DNA from: Candidatus Saccharimonadia bacterium
GTDB taxonomy: Bacteria; Patescibacteriota; Saccharimonadia; UBA4664
Assembly (NCBI GenBank): GCA_038245115.1
Contig: JBBRSS010000004.1
Location: forward strand, 1,804 to 65,803
Direction: 5' to 3'
DNA length: 64,000 nucleotides
A model generated the notes under the pieces. That model saw only the letters and a list, made by a program, of their open reading frames with translations. It ran no database searches and had not been told where the DNA came from. Position numbers and translations under genes: made by a program. Position 1 is the first letter of the stretch, and every line of letters begins with the position of its first letter. Shown piece after piece: positions 4,069-17,313 of this stretch.

Positions 4069-5478
4069 ATGGCTAAACGCAATTCTTCTTCCAGACCAAT
4101 TCGCACTGCCCTGCAAAATCTCATGATTCGCGATGTCCCGTCCTATGCCAACAAGTTCGCCTATTCGCTGGGTTTTCTTTCGGCCGTCTCATTCTTTTTG
4201 CTAGTTGCCACCGGCATTATTATGGCTATGGCCGGGCCTCATTGGTGGATAACCAGCTCCTTAGGGCAGTATCTGCGCAGCTTCCATCTCTGGGCTACCC
4301 AAGCCTTCGTCGTATTTATCCTGCTGCATTTAACGATTGTATTTCTAACGTCAGGCTACAAAGGCTCCCGCAAATTCACCTGGGTGCTGGGCGTCTTGAT
4401 GTTCTTCTTTGCTCTAGCCGAAGCCGAATTCGGTTACGTATTGCGTGGAGATTTCTCCTCTCAATACCGCAGCCTGCAGGGTTCCGACCTCTACAACGGC
4501 AGCGGTATAGGCTGGGTTCTCAACAACCTCAACACCGGTCAAGTCATGGGCATTCACATTGCAGTATTGCCGCTGACCTTAATTGTCCTCATTCTGGCCC
4601 ATTATTTTCTTGTGCGGGTCCTTGGTATTGGCAAGCCGTCACCGGCCGCCGACGCTTACCCGATGGTCAAAGCGAATCACGGCTTACTATTTTGGCGCGG
4701 CGGTACCGTAATTGCGCTGGTGGCGGCCTTGGCCTTTGCTTACCCTTCGCCCTATTTGGCGCCGCTGACTATCAGCAAGATTGCCAGTGACGATCCGGCG
4801 CTAATTTCGCAAACCCTCGTTAAGGAATTTGACGGCACATCCGACACCGCCACCTATAAAAACAATATTGCCCCGTACACGTTTAATTCGCGGTCCGTCT
4901 ATATCGAGGCCCCCTATACGCAGCTTAAGGCTACCCAGACCACTCCTAGCCAATTGAAGCTGTTCCTGGCACAGCCAGCCGAGGTTCAAAAGACGCAGCT
5001 TGATGCCGCCACGGCGTTTTATGCTGCCGACCCAGTGAGCAAAACGCTGCCCAAGGGCAACCAGGCCATCGCCGTAGTCGACAGCCTTACGACCATGGCA
5101 AAAAGCGGCCTCTACGAAGCCGCTCTGCGCGACAGCAACGGATCCGGCTACCAAACTACTTATGTGGTCAGGTTCTTGTCTGATACTGGTGTACCCGAAG
5201 AAACCGCCACTAGTATGAATATGACCACAGATCAATACGGCATGGTTCGCGAAGAGGCCAACAGCCAAGCACCCGGCGCTTGGTGGCTGGCACCAATCGG
5301 GTTGCTCAACCACACCGTCCTGGCCAAAGATGAGGACAACGGCGACCGCGACGGTGCTATCATTATTGGCACCTCCTTGCTTCTGTTGCTGGCCTTTCCC
5401 TTTATTCCGTTCCTAAACCGGCTTCCTGAGGTGTTGCGTATACGCAAGCTGTTTTGGCGCAAACCAAGCTCCAAGTAG
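4069..5478 (+). CDS. Di-heme cytochrome b N-terminal-domain protein (b6 type) fused to a roughly 200-aa extracytoplasmic domain between two extra TM helices
   Basis: Helix B carries H-x13-H (FHLWATQAFVVFILLH) and helix D carries H-x14-H (GIHIAVLPLTLIVLILAH), which is the b6-type spacing. RKFTWVLGVLMFFFALAEAEFGYVLRGDFSSQ matches the cytochrome b TW..G....AF.GYVLPWGQMS block. The quinol-site C-terminal domain is absent, replaced by a TM, a soluble domain and a final TM. Confidence 0.65.
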   Translation: MAKRNSSSRPIRTALQNLMIRDVPSYANKFAYSLGFLSAVSFFLLVATGIIMAMAGPHWWITSSLGQYLRSFHLWATQAFVVFILLHLTIVFLTSGYKGSRKFTWVLGVLMFFFALAEAEFGYVLRGDFSSQYRSLQGSDLYNGSGIGWVLNNLNTGQVMGIHIAVLPLTLIVLILAHYFLVRVLGIGKPSPAADAYPMVKANHGLLFWRGGTVIALVAALAFAYPSPYLAPLTISKIASDDPALISQTLVKEFDGTSDTATYKNNIAPYTFNSRSVYIEAPYTQLKATQTTPSQLKLFLAQPAEVQKTQLDAATAFYAADPVSKTLPKGNQAIAVVDSLTTMAKSGLYEAALRDSNGSGYQTTYVVRFLSDTGVPEETATSMNMTTDQYGMVREEANSQAPGAWWLAPIGLLNHTVLAKDEDNGDRDGAIIIGTSLLLLLAFPFIPFLNRLPEVLRIRKLFWRKPSSK

Positions 5479-5540
5479 TTATCGCAAGGTTCTCCTGTCC
5501 TTCTCATCTAATTCTAAGCAAATCGTAGTACATTTGGCTC

Positions 5541-5993
5541 ATGAAAAAACTCTTACTAGGTGCATTTGTTGTCGGAAGCTATATCATATATAGCTTCCAT
5601 CAGCGCGGGGAGGGATCAGCGGCCGTGGTGCCGCCATCTATCCAATCCACGCCGCCCGCCTCAGGGGCTACTGCCACTCCAGGTGCTGCCTCTACGCCTG
5701 CTGTTGCCTATAAGGACGGGCAATATACCGGCCAGTCTGCCGATGCCTACTACGGCTACATTCAGGTAAAAGTGACGATCTCCGGGGGTAAACTGTCCAA
5801 CGTTGAATTCTTGCAATCTCCCAGTGATCGATCCACCTCGGTGCGAATTAACTCTCAAGCCATGCCCTACCTCAAACAGGAGGCCATACAGGCTCAGAGC
5901 GCCGGCGTAGACGGTGTTTCTGGCGCCACCGATACCAGCCAAGCTTTCATCCAGTCCCTAACATCTGCGCTCAAAGCCGCACAAGCAGCTTGA
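5541..5993 (+). CDS. Membrane-anchored FMN-binding-domain protein (FMN_bind), predicted ApbE flavinylation substrate
   Basis: N-terminal TM (LLLGAFVVGSYIIYSF), a Pro/Ala/Thr linker, the YKDGQYTG FMN_bind start, and the flavinylation motif VDGVSGAT (Thr codon at 5928-5930). Confidence 0.75.
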   Translation: MKKLLLGAFVVGSYIIYSFHQRGEGSAAVVPPSIQSTPPASGATATPGAASTPAVAYKDGQYTGQSADAYYGYIQVKVTISGGKLSNVEFLQSPSDRSTSVRINSQAMPYLKQEAIQAQSAGVDGVSGATDTSQAFIQSLTSALKAAQAA

Positions 5994-6733
5994 AACAGAC
6001 CCGACAAATAATGGGTATGCCGGTGACGCTTATTGTCGAGGATGAAACTGCCTCCGCAGACATATTTGATCAAGCCTATGCTTATTTTACGAAGGTCGAT
6101 CAAGCCTACAGCCCGTACATCGCCACCAGCGAAGTCTCGCGAATTAACTCTGGCCTGCCCGAATCTGATTGGAGCCCCCAAATTACCGAGGTCGCGCAAC
6201 TATGCCGCGACACCTCCACTGCCACCGATGGCTATTTCGACGCCTGGCATCACGGCAAATTCGATCCCTCCGGTATCGTCAAGGGCTGGGCTATCAATAA
6301 TGCCGCCAAGCTATTGAGCAGCCTTGGTTGTCAAAATTATTACGTTGAAGCGGGTGGCGACATTCAGGTGAGCGGTTTTAACGCTTCGCACGAACCTTGG
6401 CATATTGGCATTCGCAACCCGTTTGATCGCCGGCAGAACGTCAAGGTGGTCTCGCTTAGTACCCAGGGAATTGCCACCTCGGGGCTTTATATCCGCGGCG
6501 CACATATATACAACCCACACGATGATAAAGCGCAACTTTCCGAAGTCGCTTCTCTGAGCGTCATCGGGCCAAATATTTACGAAGCCGACCGCTTCGCCAC
6601 CGCTGCTTTTGCAATGGGCCCTGCCGGCATCAATTTTATCGAGTCGCTGCCGGGCCTAGAGGCTTATATGATAAATAAGTCAGGCCAGGCGACGCTCACA
6701 AGCGGCTTCGAGCAGTATGTGAGGGCTAATTGA
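5990..6733 (+). CDS. apbE: ApbE-family FAD:protein FMN transferase (short form with no signal peptide)
   Basis: MGMPVTLIV, FDPSGIVKGWA, AGGDI and NPHD blocks of ApbE. TTG start in a TTGA overlap with the upstream stop. 247 aa beginning directly at the conserved MG.P block. Paralog of 13712..14449. Confidence 0.7.
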   Translation: MKQTRQIMGMPVTLIVEDETASADIFDQAYAYFTKVDQAYSPYIATSEVSRINSGLPESDWSPQITEVAQLCRDTSTATDGYFDAWHHGKFDPSGIVKGWAINNAAKLLSSLGCQNYYVEAGGDIQVSGFNASHEPWHIGIRNPFDRRQNVKVVSLSTQGIATSGLYIRGAHIYNPHDDKAQLSEVASLSVIGPNIYEADRFATAAFAMGPAGINFIESLPGLEAYMINKSGQATLTSGFEQYVRAN

Positions 6734-8247
6734 TGAAATATCTCGATAAATTCCTCGACCGCATCACCATGTACCATTTGTTGGTCTATTACTTGTACGC
6801 GCTTCTGGGTGCTGCCATGCTATTGAGTGCAGTTGGCGCCTTGGCATATAATCCGCTGGCAATCGCTATTTCTGCCGGTTATTTAGTAGCGGTTTGCCTG
6901 GTAGCCAACCGTGTCTTTGCGGCCATCTTTAAAGCCCCAAGCAATCCTGAGTCATCCCTCATTACTGCCCTCATTTTGGCTTTAATTATTACGCCGCTAG
7001 CCTCTATCCAGAGCCTGGTATTCTTAACTGCCGCCGCCGGGCTCGCTATTGCCTCAAAGTATTTACTGACCATCCGGGGACGGCACATTTTTAACCCCGC
7101 CGCAGTGGCCGTAGCACTAACGGCGGTGGGCGCCGGCGAATCTGCCAGCTGGTGGGTGGGCAGCGCGGCTCTAGCTCCGGTGGTGATCATTGGCGGCATC
7201 ATGTTAGTACGCAAGGTCAGGCGGGTCCAGATGGTGGCGCTGTTCATTATCACTGCCGTGGTCGCTACGTCTATATTAACCATCATCAGCCAAGGCAATG
7301 TCGTCGGCGAAATCCAAAAAACCTTCCTGCAGTCATCATTGCTCTTTCTTGCATTTGTGATGCTCACTGAGCCGTTGACCTCGCCCGCACAAAGTCGTCA
7401 TCAACGCTGGTATGCCATATTGGCCGGGGTACTCTTTCCGCCCCAGATTCATTTGCTGTCGCTCTATTCCACGCCCGAACTTGTGCTGCTAATTAGTAAC
7501 ATCTATGCCTATATCGTTAATCCCAAGGTCAAGCTGTTGCCTTTGCTCCAAAAAAAGATTTCTTGGGGTCCGAATACTGCCGATTTTGTCTTTGCCCTCG
7601 ACCAGCCGATAGATTATTTGCCGGGACAATATATGGAATTTACTTTGCCGCACTCCAAACCGGACTCTCGCGGCAGCCGGCGTTACTTTACACTCGCGTC
7701 GTCACCAACTGAAAATAATCTTCGCTTGGGCGTTAAATTCTATCCCCGAGGCAGTACATTCAAACAGGCACTTCGCAACATGGGCAAGACTACGCCCTTC
7801 GCTGCGGCCCAGTTGAGTGGCGACTTTGTTCTCCCCAACGACTCTACCCGCAAACTCGCCTTCGTCGCCGGCGGTATCGGCGTGACACCATTTAGGAGTA
7901 TGATCAAATACTTGTCCGACACCGACGACCCCAGATCTGTGACCTTATTGTATTCCGAGCGGACCGCGGCCGATTTGGCGTACGTTGATGTATTCACGGC
8001 CGCCCAAGCCAAACCTGGGACCAAAATTGTCTATACCCTCACCGATGCCAACACAGCGGTACCGACAGGCATGCAGGCTGGGTTCATTACTGCCGAAATT
8101 ATTCAAGCCGAAATTCCTGACTACAAAGACCGTCTTTTCTACATTTCCGGGTCTCATTCTATGGTAAGTGCTATGCAGTCAGCCCTAGGCGAGCTCGGAG
8201 TATCTAAGCACAATATTAAGATTGATTTCTTCCCCGGCTACGTTTAA
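6733..8247 (+). CDS. Fusion of a polytopic membrane domain (NqrB/RnfD-like, HIFNPA motif) with an FNR-type FAD/NAD(P)-binding oxidoreductase domain
   Basis: N-terminal ~270 aa with about 8 TM and GRHIFNPAAV. C-terminal RRYFTLASSP (FAD RxYS/T motif) and AFVAGGIGVTPF (NAD GGxGxxP). TGATG overlap with apbE. Confidence 0.6.
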   Translation: MKYLDKFLDRITMYHLLVYYLYALLGAAMLLSAVGALAYNPLAIAISAGYLVAVCLVANRVFAAIFKAPSNPESSLITALILALIITPLASIQSLVFLTAAAGLAIASKYLLTIRGRHIFNPAAVAVALTAVGAGESASWWVGSAALAPVVIIGGIMLVRKVRRVQMVALFIITAVVATSILTIISQGNVVGEIQKTFLQSSLLFLAFVMLTEPLTSPAQSRHQRWYAILAGVLFPPQIHLLSLYSTPELVLLISNIYAYIVNPKVKLLPLLQKKISWGPNTADFVFALDQPIDYLPGQYMEFTLPHSKPDSRGSRRYFTLASSPTENNLRLGVKFYPRGSTFKQALRNMGKTTPFAAAQLSGDFVLPNDSTRKLAFVAGGIGVTPFRSMIKYLSDTDDPRSVTLLYSERTAADLAYVDVFTAAQAKPGTKIVYTLTDANTAVPTGMQAGFITAEIIQAEIPDYKDRLFYISGSHSMVSAMQSALGELGVSKHNIKIDFFPGYV

Positions 8248-12683: not shown

Positions 12684-13106
12684 TTACTTAGAATCCTGCA
12701 GTAGTCCTAGGATACGGTCAAGTTCCTGCATATCGCTACGGTTTAATTTATCCAACATTCCCCCGGCGTGCCTCATTTTTTCCTTGAGTAACTGCACTAG
12801 CTTCTTCCCGGCTTCGGCCGACAATGCCAGGTAAATACTGCGACGGTCGTTCTCGTCCGGCGTTCGTATGAGCCAGCCGGATTCAACCAACCGATCGGCC
12901 AGCAGGGTAGCCGAGCCGGGAGAAATGAGCAACTCATCCGCCAGCTCGCGCATCCGTATCGGCTGTTCGTTCTTGATGAAGAACAGTGCCTGCATTTGGT
13001 GCATGGTGAGGTTCTCCACGCCGGTGTCTCCGGCGCTTTGTTGTCTCATCCGGCGGTTGATCTGGTACCAGTGGGTCAATATTGAACGCTTGAGATCTTC
13101 TTGCAT
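12684..13106 (-). CDS. MarR-family transcriptional regulator, first gene of the marR-abc-abc operon
   Basis: wHTH block LTMHQMQALFFIKNEQPIRMRELADELLISPGSATLLADRLVESGWLIRTPDENDRRS. Start taken at the internal Met (MQEDLK...), giving 140 aa. Confidence 0.75.
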   Translation of the reverse strand: MQEDLKRSILTHWYQINRRMRQQSAGDTGVENLTMHQMQALFFIKNEQPIRMRELADELLISPGSATLLADRLVESGWLIRTPDENDRRSIYLALSAEAGKKLVQLLKEKMRHAGGMLDKLNRSDMQELDRILGLLQDSK

Positions 13107-13109
13107 TTG

Positions 13110-13248
13110 AAACCAATATATTACGTTAGCGATACTAATAGTTCGTATATAAAAGTAATATACGCAACTAACCCTCGAATCGTCAATCAATCATTCTTAA
13201 GCCAAACTTTATTCGGTTGACTACTTCAAAATGGGACTATAATGATAA
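13110..13248. promoter_or_regulatory. AT-rich divergent promoter region with dyad repeats (CGTATATAAAAGTAATATACG; TTAGCGATACTAA), candidate MarR operators
   Basis: Inverted repeats read directly from the sequence between the divergent marR and dsbB-like starts. Confidence 0.3.
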
Positions 13249-13711: not shown

Positions 13712-14449
13712 TTACGGCCGCTCAAACCTGCGAAAACCTTCGGTTAATACTACTCGGCCCTGCTTGTCGATCGACATTGCCTCGTAACCTTGTCTATGTA
13801 AAAACGGTAATGCTTGATCGCCCATGCAAAATGCCGCCGTCGCCAGAGCATCAACTTGGTCAATTGTTGGGCCGATTACGGTTAGACTCACCGGGTCCTC
13901 AACCATCTGCCCGGTTCGAGGATTGTATATATGGTTGCCGCGTTCGTAATTGCCCGAGGTAGCAACGGCCATATTTTTAAGGTAAAGCTTTTTTGCCAAC
14001 TTAGTGGGGTCAAAAGGATGGGCGATCCCGATAACCCATGGGCCTCCGGATGGTCCGTCGCCGCTAATCTGCATATCGCCCCCGGCATTAATGCAGTACC
14101 GGGTGATGTCGCGGCTGTTGAGGAGTCGTGCTGCGCGGTAAATAGCCCACCCCTTAACGTATCCGGACGGGTCGATATGCCCATCTCGTGCCACGTCAAA
14201 GTACCCTTCGGTCAATTTTTTCAAACGGGCGCATTCCTCCAGCACCGCCCGCAAATCATCACTCGATTTCGGCAACTCTAATTCGCCGCGGTTAAGCCGA
14301 CTAACCTCGCTTGTGGGCTTATAGGTACTAAACGCCTCGTCAACCTCGTGGAAATATTCAAATACATCGTCGATGGCGGCGTCCGCCGCATTGCCGTCAA
14401 GCACCTCTAGGGTGATAGGCATACCCATTATATTTTGTGAAACTTTCAT
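13712..14449 (-). CDS. apbE: ApbE-family FAD:protein FMN transferase, second paralog (no signal peptide)
   Basis: MGMPITLEV, HIDPSGYVKGWA, AGGDMQ and NPRTG blocks. Collinear with the 5990..6733 protein at about 40-50% identity. Confidence 0.7.
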   Translation of the reverse strand: MKVSQNIMGMPITLEVLDGNAADAAIDDVFEYFHEVDEAFSTYKPTSEVSRLNRGELELPKSSDDLRAVLEECARLKKLTEGYFDVARDGHIDPSGYVKGWAIYRAARLLNSRDITRYCINAGGDMQISGDGPSGGPWVIGIAHPFDPTKLAKKLYLKNMAVATSGNYERGNHIYNPRTGQMVEDPVSLTVIGPTIDQVDALATAAFCMGDQALPFLHRQGYEAMSIDKQGRVVLTEGFRRFERP

Positions 14450-14458
14450 GACTTTCTA

Positions 14459-16060
14459 TTGTACAATAACCATATGCACGATACGCCGCTAGAGAACGCG
14501 CAAAAGCTCATTTCGGAAGGAAAATCGACGGCCGAAATAAGGGCTGCTCTCAATGGCGAAAGCTTTGTGCCTTCGCCAGCTGTTGCGCCGCAGGCAAGCC
14601 TCACCCCCGCCGCCTCGAATGCAGCCTCTTCGCCCAAACCCAACGCCTCGGCTTCGCCTCAGCCGCCCGCTTCGGCCCCTCCTGCTCCCGCACCGAAGCC
14701 GATGGTCTACCCGCCGCTGCTGGATACGCCGCTACGGACGGGCGTTCAGGCCCCCAAGCTAGGCTGGCCGCTGATAGTGCTGGCCTGTTTAATACCGGCG
14801 CTCGCAATATCAGTCGATACGCCCTTTGCTGAGCGATTTGGTAGTTTATCGAATGCCCTTATTGCTTTCGGCGACATTACAGGTGTCATTGGCCTGGCGG
14901 CGTACGTTCTCAATTTGGTGCTGGCAACCCGCTTTCATTGGCTGGAAGATTTGTTTGGCGGCCTCAACCGCGCCCTGATAGCCCATCAAGTTTTGGGCGG
15001 CATAGCACTTATTATGCTGCTATTTCACCCCATCCTCACGGCAGCCTCTTACTATTCCTACGGTGTCCAGGCAGTTGCCCATTTTTTTGTGCCTTCGGTC
15101 GCCTATATTGGCACGGCTTTCGGTATTGTTGCTCTCGCGATGATCATCATCTTGTTGGTCCTGAGTTTCTATATCAAAATTGGCTACCGACTATGGCTGC
15201 AAACCCATAAATACCTTGGTCTGGCCTATCTCCTCATAATGCTGCATGTCCTATTGACGCCGAATCGCATCACGGCTGACCCGTTTGTTAAATGGTACCT
15301 GTACCTTCTTCTGGTTGTGGGGGCATTTGCCTTTATTTATCGCACGTTACTGCCAAATATATTCGTCCGCCGGTATCTGTATACCATTGCCGCTGCGCAG
15401 CCCAAAGGCATCGGCGTAGTCGAGGTTACGTTGGCGCCAGTGAACAAATCCGTCCACGTTCGAGCTGGGCAATTTATTTTTGTGACATTCAGTAGCGATG
15501 GGCTATCGTCCGAATCGCACCCTTTTAGCATCTCATCGGGCGAGAACTCCAACCAGCTGATGATCGACGTCAAGTCGCTCGGGTCGTATACGGAAACTCT
15601 CACCCGGCTTCTACCGCATATGGTTGGCATGACGGCTCAGGTTGAGGGAGCATATGGCCGATTTTCGTACCGCAACATTGGGAATTTAAACCAAGTTTGG
15701 ATTGGCGGGGGAATAGGTATAACGCCGTTTCTGAGTATGGCGCAAACTCTCGGATCCGGGCCGTATAATATCGACCTGTATTACTCGGTAAAGACGGCAA
15801 GTGAGCTAATTGACCTCGACACCCTGGCGATCCATCAATCCAACCTACCGGGCCAGGTGTTTCGGACTTTTCCGTTTATCACTGAAACTTACAAGTCGTA
15901 CTTGAGTGCCGGCATCATCAAGAAGAATAGCGGCAATCTCGATAAACGGGACTTCCTCTTGTGCGGCCCGCCCGGCATGATGCAGGAAATCAAGAAGCAG
16001 CTCATAAAGCTTGGGGTCAAAGAAACTCGGATTCACAGCGAAGAATTCTCGCTCGAATAA
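14459..16060 (+). CDS. NOX/ferric-reductase-family flavocytochrome: a 6-TM bis-heme domain plus FAD and NAD(P)H domains, with a Pro/Ala/Ser-rich N-terminal extension
   Basis: TM3 has H-x13-H (IAHQVLGGIALIMLLFH) and TM5 has H-x12-H (THKYLGLAYLLIMLH), the NOX spacing. HPFSISS is the FAD motif and GGGIGITPF the NAD motif. The first ~95 aa are low-complexity. Confidence 0.7.
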   Translation: MYNNHMHDTPLENAQKLISEGKSTAEIRAALNGESFVPSPAVAPQASLTPAASNAASSPKPNASASPQPPASAPPAPAPKPMVYPPLLDTPLRTGVQAPKLGWPLIVLACLIPALAISVDTPFAERFGSLSNALIAFGDITGVIGLAAYVLNLVLATRFHWLEDLFGGLNRALIAHQVLGGIALIMLLFHPILTAASYYSYGVQAVAHFFVPSVAYIGTAFGIVALAMIIILLVLSFYIKIGYRLWLQTHKYLGLAYLLIMLHVLLTPNRITADPFVKWYLYLLLVVGAFAFIYRTLLPNIFVRRYLYTIAAAQPKGIGVVEVTLAPVNKSVHVRAGQFIFVTFSSDGLSSESHPFSISSGENSNQLMIDVKSLGSYTETLTRLLPHMVGMTAQVEGAYGRFSYRNIGNLNQVWIGGGIGITPFLSMAQTLGSGPYNIDLYYSVKTASELIDLDTLAIHQSNLPGQVFRTFPFITETYKSYLSAGIIKKNSGNLDKRDFLLCGPPGMMQEIKKQLIKLGVKETRIHSEEFSLE

Positions 16061-16078: not shown

Positions 16079-17155
16079 CTAGCTTAGTAGATCGGCAACA
16101 AAAATTCCGATGAGGCTGACAAAGAACAGTATCAGTGAGACTCCCACCAGGGCTTTGATCGGCCTCGCGTGCCCGGAGCCAACCAACTTCAGCAGCCTTC
16201 GTCGCAAGACGTATACGGCTGCGGCGAACAGGGCGAAAACACTGCCGAATCCGATTAATATTCCCATTGGCAGAGGTTGTTTTGATGCCGCCGCCGTAAG
16301 CGAAAACTTTTCGCCCCCGGCCGTTCCTTGGACCGTCAGCTGAAACTGGCTCTTGTCGCCTTTGTATGTCACCTGCGCCAACTCTTGGCCCGCCGCAATA
16401 CCGCTAAAGAGCGCATCCCCCTTATCGTCTGTCGGCATAGTTTGGCCGCCCAGAGTCACCGTCGCGGCTACCGCTGGGCTGCCGTTTTTATCTGTGACAT
16501 GAATTAAGACCGTTCCAGGCAAAACCTCGGCCGCGGGCTGAGTCGGGTCGGTTGTTATAGGTTCGCTACTCACTACGGCTGGTGAGGGATTTGCATCTGG
16601 GGTTGCGCCGGGCGATGAGCCGGGTGATGCGTTTGTCGCCGGTGCCGGGGTGGTCGAGGGTGAGCCTGGCTTGGGAGTTGGCACGGGTGTGTGACCTGGG
16701 GCCACCGTTGGTGTCGGCGTGTGGGTTGGTAGGGGAGTTGGAGTGGGTGTGTGACCGGGGGCGGGAGTCGGCGCCGGCGTCGGTACAGGCGTCGGTTTGG
16801 GGGTCGGCACTGGCGTTGGTTTGGGCGTCGGCACCGGTGTTGGCACCGGCGTCGGTACTGGCGTCGGCTTTGGTGTCGGCACCGGCGTCGGCGTTGCGCA
16901 GGGCGTCGCGGTCGAACACGCATTAACACCAGTTGCCTTAAAGCCCCCGAGGACCTCATTTATTAATATTGTCACTCCCGACTTCGGGCCGTTCGATGCC
17001 ATACGGTCAGTATTGCCTGGTGTGCCGCTATATTTCTGAGCCGTCTGATTGATGTTGTATTGGCTTATCAATTCGTAGAGTATTGGCACAGCAAACACCC
17101 CCACCAAAATATAGGATCTGGTTAGGCGGCGCTTTAGGAGTTTTTGTCGCTTCAT
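16079..17155 (-). CDS. Cell-surface protein with a (PTPV/K)n proline-threonine repeat, an Ig-like/CarboxypepD_reg-like domain and a C-terminal LPMG-hydrophobic-RRR segment followed by another TM
   Basis: N-terminal signal anchor, roughly 100 aa of [12 protein letters not shown] repeats, then [28 protein letters not shown]. Start taken at the internal MKRQK. Confidence 0.5.
16768..16905. repeat. Tandem 12-nt repeat (GGCGTCGGCACC and variants) encoding the Pro-Thr-Pro-Val/Lys linker
   Basis: Period-12 repetition visible directly. It generates spurious ORFs on both strands. Confidence 0.7.
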
Positions 17156-17313
17156 TATGATAATACTATCACGCCTATGCTTTCCTCGATATACGCGCTG
17201 ACAAGCAACAATGAGGCTCCCGCGCCGAATAACCAGCAACGGCAGTCGGCAACTGTTTCAGCAATGATTCCAGATACGCTATACTAGTCGCGTACTTCAT
17301 CTCGGAGGCGCCC

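Follow-up and report, generated by a model that had tools for sequence, protein, structure and literature searches.

The window, a 64-kb stretch of DNA, contains a gene whose product is confirmed by sequence and predicted structure as a bacterial NADPH oxidase (NOX)-type membrane enzyme of Saccharimonadia. It stands beside a divergent apbE gene (Table 1). Taken together, the analyses probably describe an SpNOX-type enzyme that starts at ATG 14474, carries a cytoplasmic hairpin on a tether, and shares a bidirectional leaderless promoter with apbE.

Prokaryotic NOX enzymes serve as models for the activation of eukaryotic NOX. A naturally occurring NOX that carries a tethered module and has ApbE as a constant partner would allow possible regulation or cofactor handling to be tested in a minimal organism. 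Redox metabolism is very limited in Patescibacteria, and the locus suggests a way in which these bacteria may carry electrons through the membrane. In this phylum, gene starts are frequently mis-annotated. The 24-bp spacer holds a conserved symmetric -10 palindrome and is a short candidate promoter that would work in both directions and yield two leaderless mRNAs; it offers a way into the promoter and start-codon rules of Patescibacteria.

Table 1. Features of the NOX-apbE locus, in window coordinates.
Feature	Position	Strand	Basis
NOX-family gene, 528 aa + stop	14474..16060	+	P0001 call, Pfam, SpNOX, homologue N-termini
TTG, first possible ORF start, rejected	14459..14461	+	inside ATTGTACAAT; out of frame in L096, L097, L090, L003
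Hairpin, residues 1-28	14474..14557	+	alignment A2, pN/pS, AF2, profile matches
Pro/Ala/Ser linker, residues 29-76	14558..14701	+	composition, codon-position GC, pLDDT <50
Juxtamembrane segment, residues 77-96	14702..14761	+	A2 columns 118-140; Met replaced by V, A, I or F
Predicted six-helix ferric-reductase-type membrane domain, residues 97-297	14762..15364	+	Pfam PF01794, AF2
Heme-ligand His codons (putative)	14984-14986, 15026-15028, 15206-15208, 15245-15247	+	invariance, regex
Predicted cytoplasmic dehydrogenase domain, residues 300-528	15371..16057	+	Pfam PF08022, PF00175
HPFSI FAD motif	15518-15532	+	regex of Hajjar 2017
GIGITP NAD(P)H motif	15710-15727	+	regex of Hajjar 2017
Palindrome ATTGTACAAT	14458..14467	.	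conservation across 10 distinct loci
Intergenic spacer, apbE ATG to NOX ATG, 24 bp	14450..14473	.	locus comparison
apbE, 245 aa	13712..14449	-	Pfam ApbE, PDB matches, divergent adjacency

Identity and catalytic core of the NOX enzyme

The forward-strand ORF (14459..16060) comprises 533 aa when counted from its first TTG. Pfam analysis placed three domains in the order Ferric_reduct (141-260), FAD_binding_8 (318-388), and NAD_binding_1 (415-512). SpNOX of Streptococcus pneumoniae (8qq7) was the best solved relative by sequence, with an E-value of 4e-26 and about 24% identity. A Foldseek search with the AF2 model also returned SpNOX at the top (8qt6, E 3e-21, TM-score 0.72 normalised by target length), and 8qta and 8qq7 were among the further top matches. 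The dehydrogenase domain also matched the SpNOX DH-domain structures 8qq5 and 8qq1. The family assignment of the earlier note was borne out by sequence and predicted fold.

The features published for bacterial NOX enzymes (Hajjar et al. 2017) include an H[PSA]F[TS][LIMV] motif for FAD; two His-X12/14-His pairs for heme, on the separate helices TM3 and TM5 and at least 20 residues apart; and an SpNOX-like fold of six TM helices followed by a C-terminal dehydrogenase domain. All of the published motif filters select this protein. Numbered from ATG 14474, the heme His pairs are H171-X13-H185 and H245-X12-H258, as found by the regex test; they lie across two separate helices of the AF2 model (164-191 and 238-261). 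The FAD motif HPFSI occupies residues 349-353 within HPFSISS, and the NAD(P)H motif GIGITP occupies residues 413-418. The His spacings of 13 and 12 and the HPF(S/T)ISS motif, read as NOX hallmarks from the DNA alone, were both recovered. All four heme His residues are invariant in 27 homologues, as are H349, P350, and F351 of the FAD motif and G413, I414, G415, and P418 of the NAD(P)H motif. The AF2 model (mean pLDDT 75.5) has six long helices over residues 97-297, followed by a β/α domain.

Sequence, motifs and predicted fold support a single-polypeptide flavocytochrome of the SpNOX type. Electrons would pass from a cytoplasmic NAD(P)H/FAD dehydrogenase to two bis-His hemes in the six-helix domain, and from there to an acceptor outside the cell. 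The acceptor may be O2, giving superoxide, or an extracytosolic redox protein.

The N-terminal extension

About 96 residues stand before TM1. The earlier note described a ~95-aa extension that was rich in Pro/Ala/Ser, of low complexity, rich in G+C, and probably coding. The length and the G+C content hold (0.64 over 14500-14799, whereas the window averages 0.54). However, the Pro/Ala/Ser-rich part is confined to residues 29-76, where these residues make up 75%; residues 1-28 have an ordinary composition and form a conserved helical motif. The coding reading is also well founded: in more than 10 loci the reading frame is uninterrupted across linkers that differ greatly in length, and codons 1-27 gave a pN of 0.26 against a pS of 0.81 (9 loci). 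These comparisons argue that the extension is genuine and translated.

Alignment A2 showed that residues 1-28 share the consensus M.(E/D)T.LE..Q(R/K)L..EG.ST.EIR..L. Two helices (5-14 and 19-26) were predicted by AF2 with pLDDT 71-84. On the alignment and the substitution rates, this segment is a conserved helix-turn-helix hairpin under purifying selection. The linker that follows is G+C-rich and hypervariable in sequence and length among homologues (~28-100 aa), and its frame is open in every locus, including L006, where the protein is annotated as short yet the extension is encoded in frame. In the model, the linker has pLDDT below 50 and residues 30-76 are disordered. A search of the linker for tandem repeats found none. 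The juxtamembrane segment after it opens with an unconserved Met. Since the number of TM helices is even and the C-terminal domain is cytoplasmic, the extension would also be cytoplasmic: a two-helix hairpin and a ~48-residue disordered Pro/Ala/Ser tether joined to TM1. The hairpin would most likely act as a tethered protein-interaction or regulatory module.

Short forms of ~440 aa without the extension make up about 85 of the 120 homologues listed. A genome-contig scan returned, among the matches listed, only distant short NOX forms (≤43% identity), which were of use solely for co-occurrence with apbE, and a first scan of metagenomes with a single-protein query gave no match. An exact-protein look-up of the NOX product likewise gave no contig. 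A profile of the hairpin gave 189 matches at E≤1e-3, including EamA transporters and single-pass membrane proteins; in these, a related hairpin or three-helix module comes first, then a low-complexity linker, then a TM segment. When the window and 97 loci were searched with an HMM of the N-terminal motif, no further protein carrying it turned up. RecX_HTH2 scored above its Pfam cutoff (26 bits) in two NOX homologues with two copies of the module, P0018 (31.0 bits) and P0030 (28.3 bits). A RecX unit has three helices, of which only two are predicted in the window's NOX; the third-helix segment of more distant NOX homologues is replaced here by linker. The profile also matched the UBA domains of CBL and MARK2 as well as generic designed helical repeats, and residues 1-95 had no Pfam match even at E≤10. 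Because of these last two results, the likeness of the N-terminal modules to RecX/UBA three-helix units is regarded as weak. The hairpin may be a truncated form of a RecX/UBA-like module of three helices, one that other membrane proteins also carry at their N-terminus.

The intergenic junction: start codon and promoter

The NOX translation start is most likely ATG 14474. The public gene call P0001 (528 aa) is identical to the ORF from this codon, and the N-termini of the homologues line up with it. Homologues at 50-64% identity all open with M.ET.LE..QRL..EG.ST.EIR directly after the palindrome. With this start, the gap to the apbE start is 24 bp. The same spacer length was found in L001, L004, L006, and L094, and spacers of 22-27 bp in L095, L096, L097, and L090.

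The palindrome ATTGTACAAT is perfect over 10 bp and over 12 bp as TATTGTACAATA (14457-14468). It occurs once in the window. It is invariant in 10 distinct loci, with one mismatch in L095, even though synonymous sites are saturated; the flanking spacer bases vary. These loci were gathered by protein similarity and not by DNA pattern. The palindrome reads TACAAT on both strands, as TACAAT-N6-ATG towards NOX (+) and TACAAT-N8-ATG towards apbE (-). Across loci, 6-8 nt separate it from the NOX ATG and 6-10 nt from the apbE ATG, the latter taken from junction sequences. In the window, -10-like hexamers overlap symmetrically on the two strands, each within the 5-9 nt of a start codon that a promoter of this kind calls for, and the arrangement is conserved across loci. 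The predicted transcription start sites of NOX and apbE are 23 bp apart, a separation that belongs to the symmetric spacings described for bidirectional promoters in bacteria (Warman et al., bioRxiv 10.1101/2020.01.31.928960).

In the window, TANNNT boxes lie 5-8 nt upstream of 13 of 59 first ATGs, against a background of 4.7% (p = 3e-6). A Shine-Dalgarno core was found for 20 of 59 genes, and no gene has both signals. Among the other starts in the window that lack a Shine-Dalgarno core, 5 of 13 have TAC..T boxes. Upstream of either TACAAT, nothing convincing was found as a -35 hexamer or a TGn extended -10. A scan with generic sigma-70 and terminator models found no more than shuffled sequence would give and called nothing at the junction. 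To our knowledge, promoter rules for Patescibacteria are not established. GGAGG-like bases lie between the palindrome and the ATG in L097 and L090; these two cases count against a leaderless reading. The earlier note allowed for a promoter lying within the adjacent coding sequence. Such a promoter would not be wholly so placed: both -10 candidates are in the 24-bp spacer, and just a -35 region would overlap apbE. We infer from these patterns that the palindrome is a candidate bidirectional -10 element giving leaderless mRNAs in both directions. A symmetric promoter at this site would drive NOX and apbE, with RNA polymerase starting at or within ~2 nt of each ATG.

Three other readings of the junction were considered. 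The start 9 bp from apbE given in the earlier note corresponds to TTG 14459, which is in frame and the first start codon of the ORF; its mRNA would begin inside apbE. This TTG is present because it is part of the conserved palindrome. Its equivalent is in frame where the gap is 6 nt (L001, L004, L006, and L094), but out of frame where the gap is 7-8 nt (the four loci in Table 1). The five added residues (LYNNH) have no conserved counterpart, and no Shine-Dalgarno sequence stands ahead of the TTG, so that its use is very improbable. A start at the internal Met (14702), which the earlier note named as the result that would overturn its reading, would leave 14474-14701 as an untranslated leader or promoter region. 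The calls P0002 (452 aa) and P0005 (449 aa) of close homologues begin at the equivalent position, and the many short forms would agree. However, P0002 is a miscall: L006 holds the full in-frame extension, and the called start there is a GTG. The Met is Val (GTG) in L006 and Ala, Ile or Phe in other homologues, and the upstream peptide is kept at the amino-acid level; because of these two points, this start is very unlikely indeed. The purifying selection on codons 1-27, the open frame across variable linkers, and the lack of either a Shine-Dalgarno or a -10-like signal ahead of 14702 also speak against it, as does the lack of RNA features upstream. The palindrome might instead be primarily an operator for a dimeric factor, with leadered mRNAs starting from promoters inside the opposite genes and ATG 14474 used independently of a Shine-Dalgarno sequence. 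Perfect palindromes are typical operators. All 10 bases are kept, including the non-consensus C/G, which is more than two TAnnnT boxes require; a dimeric regulator may therefore also bind. No -35 element was found, and a MarR-family gene lies 1.3 kb away. On the other side, the distance from palindrome to ATG is fixed at 6-8 nt even in L003, which has no apbE; distant homologues carry plain -10-like boxes there (TATAAT-N8-ATG in L007 and TACTAT-N6-GTG in L098); TAC..T boxes precede other starts in the window, as counted above; the window holds no second copy of the motif; and no regulator gene is conserved near the apbE-NOX pair. A primary operator role is rather unlikely, and the palindrome could serve as operator and -10 element at once.

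An Rfam scan of 14300-14900 found no RNA family, and 14474-14710 folded no more stably as RNA than its shuffled versions (z = +0.54); on these grounds a riboswitch or structured leader was rejected. The start is wrongly called in several public homologues.

The apbE partner and the electron acceptor

The divergent apbE reported in the earlier note is present (Pfam ApbE, 1e-45). PDB matches of its product align a His with the HI.DP motif. It is divergent from and adjacent to NOX in 10 of 11 distinct loci of the clade, whereas the other surrounding genes all differ. In two DPANN archaeal loci, a signal-less apbE lies immediately upstream of short NOX genes, in the same direction. The N-terminus of the window's protein, MKVSQNIMGMPITLEVLDG, has no hydrophobic stretch as judged by eye, and the second ApbE in the window also lacks a signal peptide by inspection. 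By homology, the compact ApbE is an FAD:protein FMN transferase homologue and a conserved divergent partner, and the two genes would form a conserved unit. The conserved pairing might mean that a cytoplasmic ApbE acts on NOX or its tethered hairpin, by covalent flavin attachment or flavin loading, but this is unlikely. The ApbE target motif [ST]GA[ST], sought by eye in NOX, was not found, and neither GDITGVIG (TM2) nor EGKST (hairpin) fits it. Were ApbE to act in this way, NOX would depend on ApbE in a manner not described before, its N-terminal module would be a docking or regulatory element, and the two genes would make up a minimal system by which ultrasmall symbionts export electrons through the membrane.

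The enzyme may, on another reading, be no O2-reducing oxidase but an MsrQ-like flavinylation conduit, which would pass NAD(P)H electrons to an ApbE-flavinylated extracytosolic protein, for example the product of 5541-5993, or to ferric iron. Clusters of apbE with PF01794/PF00175 proteins are a described class (Meheust et al. 2021, PMC8238504), and here apbE, a tightly conserved neighbour, and the PF01794 protein are likewise found together, 24 bp apart. The outer TM3-TM4 loop is highly conserved. Some 8 kb upstream, the gene 5541-5993 encodes an FMN_bind protein that has a signal anchor and the canonical site DGVSGAT; it is accompanied by the second ApbE and an NqrB/RnfD-FAD-NAD fusion; the same FMN_bind/ApbE/NqrB-RnfD fusion combination occurs within 7 kb in L006. 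However, the class calls for an FMN-binding (PF04205) substrate gene within five genes on either side (Meheust et al. 2021). The nearest one, with its N-terminal hydrophobic anchor, is eight genes away in a separate NQR/RNF-like cluster, and in the other loci too there is none within five genes of the pair; in L001, L004, L095, L096, and L097 none stands beside it. Both ApbEs appear to lack signal peptides. SpNOX, the nearest relative that has been characterised, reduces O2 and forms superoxide (Hajjar et al. 2017, PMC5676040). In L098, a NOX of the three-helix clade lies 0.9 kb from a Ni-superoxide dismutase gene, which hints at superoxide. The conduit reading is a serious possibility, though less likely than not.

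Comparison with known systems

SpNOX is described as constitutively active and without regulatory domains; it has 399-400 aa, with few residues ahead of TM1. The window's NOX has ~96 extra N-terminal residues, longer conserved outer loops, and an apbE partner gene. Each is a single polypeptide of six TM helices in which TM3 and TM5 carry the bis-His pairs, spaced by 13 and 12 residues, and each ends in a C-terminal FAD/NAD(P)H dehydrogenase with HPF(S/T) and G.G..P motifs (PMC5676040; PMC11031084). NOX5/DUOX and cyanobacterial NOX5-like enzymes also have an N-terminal cytoplasmic module and a linker before the NOX core, and N-terminal regulation of the same kind is a possible analogy. However, the 28-residue hairpin has no EF-hand or Ca-binding signature and no homology to their EF-hand domains. 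RecX repeats (PF02631/PF21982) and UBA domains share with the hairpin the pattern of a helix, a G-x-S/T N-cap, and a second helix, but the hairpin heads a membrane protein, whereas those modules serve RecA regulation or ubiquitin binding.

In MsrQ-like clusters, as in the window, apbE adjoins a PF01794 membrane protein fused to a PF00175 domain. Those clusters come mostly from actinobacteria, usually hold an FMN-binding gene, and were chosen for components bearing signal peptides; Patescibacteria are reported to be under-represented for extracytosolic flavinylation (Meheust et al. 2021, PMC8238504). The unit in the window, by contrast, is patescibacterial and consists of apbE and NOX only, with an ApbE that has no signal peptide by eye. 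The junction resembles the symmetric promoters of Warman et al. in its overlapping -10 hexamers on opposite strands, and it resembles leaderless mRNAs in that the ATG stands at the predicted +1 of NOX. It differs from those promoters in that the palindrome is perfect, phylogenetically fixed, and found in a phylum without characterised promoters, and in that both transcripts, as predicted from sequence, would be leaderless and would come from a conserved functional gene pair.

NOX family assignment

The NOX protein contains three Pfam domains: Ferric_reduct (residues 141-260), FAD_binding_8 (318-388), and NAD_binding_1 (415-512). Among solved structures, the S. pneumoniae NADPH oxidase SpNOX (8qq7, E = 4e-26) is closest in sequence, and the alignment begins at query residue 145, SpNOX residue 38. 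An AlphaFold2 model with 27 homologues as input (mean pLDDT 75.5) has six long membrane helices (residues 97-297) and, C-terminal to them, a beta/alpha dehydrogenase domain. SpNOX structures took the top three Foldseek ranks (E = 3e-21; TM-score 0.72, normalised by target length), followed by DUOX1, NOX5, and NOX2. The SpNOX comparison proposed in the earlier note places SpNOX first both by sequence and by fold. All the published motifs of bacterial NOX (Hajjar et al. 2017, PMC5676040) were found: HPFSI at 349, GIGITP at 413, H171-X13-H185, and H245-X12-H258. The four His residues, HPF, and G-I-G do not vary among 27 NOX homologues, and the His spacing and HPF motif named earlier as hallmarks were read correctly. 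Sequence and model together make the family assignment sound; catalysis is a prediction. NOX might feed a flavoprotein or an iron acceptor rather than reduce O2, which we regard as a serious but somewhat less probable reading.

Features of the apbE-NOX region and of the upstream redox cluster (window coordinates)
Feature	Position	Strand	Remarks
Cytochrome b-like gene	4069-5478	+	
FMN_bind protein	5541-5993	+	N-terminal signal anchor; canonical DGVSGAT flavinylation site
Second ApbE	6011-6733	+	no apparent signal peptide
NqrB/RnfD + FAD_binding_6 + NAD_binding_1 fusion	6733-8247	+	
MarR-family regulator	12684-13190	-	ORF-maximal start TTG 13190
Membrane protein, 152 aa	13249-13707	+	convergent on apbE 3' end; DsbB match sub-threshold (19.1 vs 22.1 bits)
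apbE (ApbE1)	13712-14449	-	ApbE family, Pfam E = 1e-45
NOX ORF from first possible start (TTG)	14459-16060	+	533 codons
NOX gene from ATG	14474-16060	+	528 aa
386-aa protein	16079-17239	-	long (P-T/P-K)-rich repeat region; sub-threshold CarboxypepD_reg domain

N-terminal hairpin and tether

A homologue search with NOX identified Saccharimonadia/Patescibacteria proteins, about 30 of them long forms (490-596 aa) and the remainder short forms of ~440 aa. Those long forms that have 50-64% identity all share the N-terminus M.ET.LE..QRL..EG.ST.EIR..L. Between this motif and the conserved G-W of TM1 lie ~28 to 100 residues, unrelated in sequence and very different in length. Across nine loci, codons 1-27 gave pS = 0.81 (saturated) and pN = 0.26, which indicates purifying selection at the protein level. 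AlphaFold2 predicted helices at residues 5-14 and 19-26 (pLDDT 71-84), and residues 30-76 had pLDDT below 50. Met77 (14702) varies in the alignment. No Rfam family matched 14300-14900, RNA folding of the extension region was not better than that of shuffles (z = +0.54), and no tandem repeat was found in the linker that follows the hairpin.

The N-terminal extension is therefore coding and consists of two parts, a conserved hairpin and then a tether. Since the membrane helices of NOX number six and its C-terminal domain is cytoplasmic, the extension should lie in the cytoplasm as well. The earlier note had described a NOX-type gene with an extension that was coding, GC-rich, and low-complexity. 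The gene and its extension are real, judging from the Pfam domains, the motifs, and the conserved N-termini, and the coding claim is borne out by the first 27 codons. G+C does rise to 0.64 in 14500-14799 (window mean 0.54), an effect of G+C-rich first and second codon positions. Low complexity holds for residues 29-76 (75% Pro+Ala+Ser), but not for the hairpin (residues 1-28).

More distant NOX homologues carry a longer three-helix module in one or two copies (e.g. VEQYKNYIKELHAQGYSADQIRQMLQKQGLDEATIDQLV). Three-helix N-termini scored 31.0 and 28.3 bits, exceeding the Pfam RecX_HTH2 cutoff of 26 bits; a Pfam search of the window's own NOX N-terminus gave no match. A 39-position module profile, searched against 1.84 billion representative proteins, gave 189 matches at E<=1e-3. 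These include EamA-family transporters (P0169, P0208, P0123) and single-pass membrane proteins (P0205, P0217, P0219, P0233, P0248, P0267), each of which opens with the module, often as tandem copies, while a low-complexity linker leads from it to the membrane segment. PDB matches of the profile were designed helical repeats and UBA domains, so this similarity is generic. The module was not found in other ORFs of the window or of the fetched loci. We read the extension as a recurrent "N-terminal helical module + tether" that was probably accreted onto NOX and, in the window's clade, cut down to two helices. Held on its tether, the hairpin may serve in interaction or regulation.

Start codon and shared palindrome

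For the junction comparison, loci were selected on the basis of protein identity or similarity; no DNA pattern entered the selection.

Junctions between apbE and NOX (apbE start as "cat" on the + strand, spacer, NOX ATG)
Locus	Junction
Window	cat-GACTTTCT-ATTGTACAAT-AACCAT-ATG
L001	cat-GACTTCGT-ATTGTACAAT-ATGCTT-ATG
L004	cat-GAGTCCGT-ATTGTACAAT-ATGCTT-ATG
L006	cat-AACCCTAT-ATTGTACAAT-AATCAT-ATG
L094	cat-GACTTCGT-ATTGTACAAT-ACGGTT-ATG

The 10-bp palindrome ATTGTACAAT (14458-14467) is 7 nt from the NOX ATG in L096 and 8 nt in L097 and L090. L095 has one mismatch (ATTGTAGAAT) and 7 nt, and L003 retains ATTGTACAAT-N7-ATG although apbE is not adjacent. The palindrome occurs once in the window, and in the fetched loci only at NOX junctions and at one L035 site (1607-1616; this locus is from a Buchananbacteria MAG, and a short-form NOX lies 1.4 kb downstream of the site). 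In the three-helix clade, the same position has plain -10-like boxes, TATAAT-N8-ATG (L007) and TACTAT-N6-GTG (L098). TTG 14459, the start proposed earlier, is the TTG within the palindrome. Only a 6-nt spacer to the ATG puts it in frame, and so it is not a conserved start. The comparison assigns the NOX translation start to ATG 14474 instead.

Several public starts of close homologues are wrong (L006 5785-6000; L094 243-275; L001/L004 6001-6006). P0002 (452 aa), the closest "short" homologue, was rejected as a true short form: its called start is a GTG, and its locus L006 carries the entire extension in frame (MQETPLEVAQRLLAEGRTTDEIRVALGG, then a Pro/Ala linker). This call is ~72 residues too short. 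P0004 is 11 residues too long, having been read through the palindrome, and P0003 and P0006 have "ML" added at the N-terminus.

Both strands of the palindrome contain TACAAT. The + strand copy ends 6 nt before the A of ATG 14474, which puts this A at the canonical +1 position; between the - strand copy and the apbE ATG lie 8 nt. The predicted divergent start sites are 23 bp apart, and 23 bp is among the symmetric spacings enriched at divergent bacterial start sites (Warman et al., bioRxiv 10.1101/2020.01.31.928960). The palindrome is probably the symmetric -10 of a bidirectional promoter for apbE and NOX, and both mRNAs would be leaderless. Neither a -35 nor a TGn element can be recognised upstream of either TACAAT, and a generic promoter scan made no call at the junction. 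Full conservation of all ten palindrome bases also leaves room for regulator binding at the same site.

Gene starts in the window were surveyed at the first ATG of 59 long ORFs. TANNNT lies 5-8 nt before 13 of them (background 4.7%, p = 3e-6), with a peak at 6 nt, and five of the 13 boxes begin with TAC. A Shine-Dalgarno core was present at 20/59 (background 9.6%), and no gene had both. These mutually exclusive classes fit a mixture of Shine-Dalgarno-led and leaderless genes in this Saccharimonadia genome, and suggest that leaderless mRNAs may be widespread in it.

The apbE partner and neighbouring genes

The apbE gene adjoins NOX divergently in 10 of 11 distinct two-helix-clade loci, and every other neighbour differs. 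Adjacent apbE is absent at L003, L007, and L098. Among the matches listed (species-representative genomes), apbE lies within 3 kb of NOX in only 4 of 80 short-form loci. In two of the four, the DPANN archaeal loci L039 (2133-2993) and L058 (2157-3008) from Woesearchaeota and Nanoarchaeum MAGs, apbE directly precedes a short-form NOX on the same strand; these loci are an independent recurrence of the link. Their ApbE, like ApbE1, lacks a hydrophobic segment at the N-terminus. With 245 aa, ApbE1 is compact (solved ApbEs have 325-340 aa), but both the His in HI.DP and the DALATA segment are retained. The neighbouring apbE is a conserved partner of NOX, the two having in common a 24-bp spacer with a fixed palindrome, the candidate symmetric -10.

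The MarR-family gene is the only regulator near the pair, and is not conserved at other loci; it likely starts at ATG 13106 (TATATT-N8-ATG), not at TTG 13190. The 152-aa membrane protein, whose start codon has a TATAAT box ahead of it (TATAAT-N5-ATG), apparently has one Cys (ATLCWVDR) in place of the usual first pair; it is not conserved beside the pair at other loci. The 386-aa protein has an ambiguous start, TTG 17239 or ATG 17155 with TAGTAT-N7, and its repeat-rich gene is the source of the high G+C (65-70%) and the strong GC skew seen at 16500-16900. In the three-helix clade, a 62-64-aa ORF overlaps the NOX stop codon (L098; L007 7626-7814). In L098 the stretch 5746-7387 also takes in a Ni-superoxide dismutase gene (Sod_Ni) with its S26 peptidase, ~0.9 kb downstream on the same strand, a possible hint of superoxide handling. 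At L008 (7314-8048), the short-form NOX P0064 has an overlapping downstream gene whose 244-aa product carries a cytochrome b5 domain.

Relation to known systems

The separate redox cluster 8 kb upstream of the pair (4069-8247, + strand) is of the "NQR/RNF-like" type described by Meheust et al. 2021, and L006 has the same gene combination near its NOX. Clusters of apbE with PF01794/PF00175 have been described as "MsrQ-like" systems (Meheust et al. 2021, PMC8238504). Most of these are from actinobacteria, and an FMN-binding gene and exported components are normally part of them. Unlike these, the apbE-NOX pair has no adjacent FMN-binding gene. SpNOX-type NOX, apbE-linked PF01794 systems, symmetric bidirectional promoters, and leaderless mRNAs are all known kinds; the combination of these elements, the N-terminal module on NOX, and the pairing with an apparently signal-less ApbE vary them in new ways.
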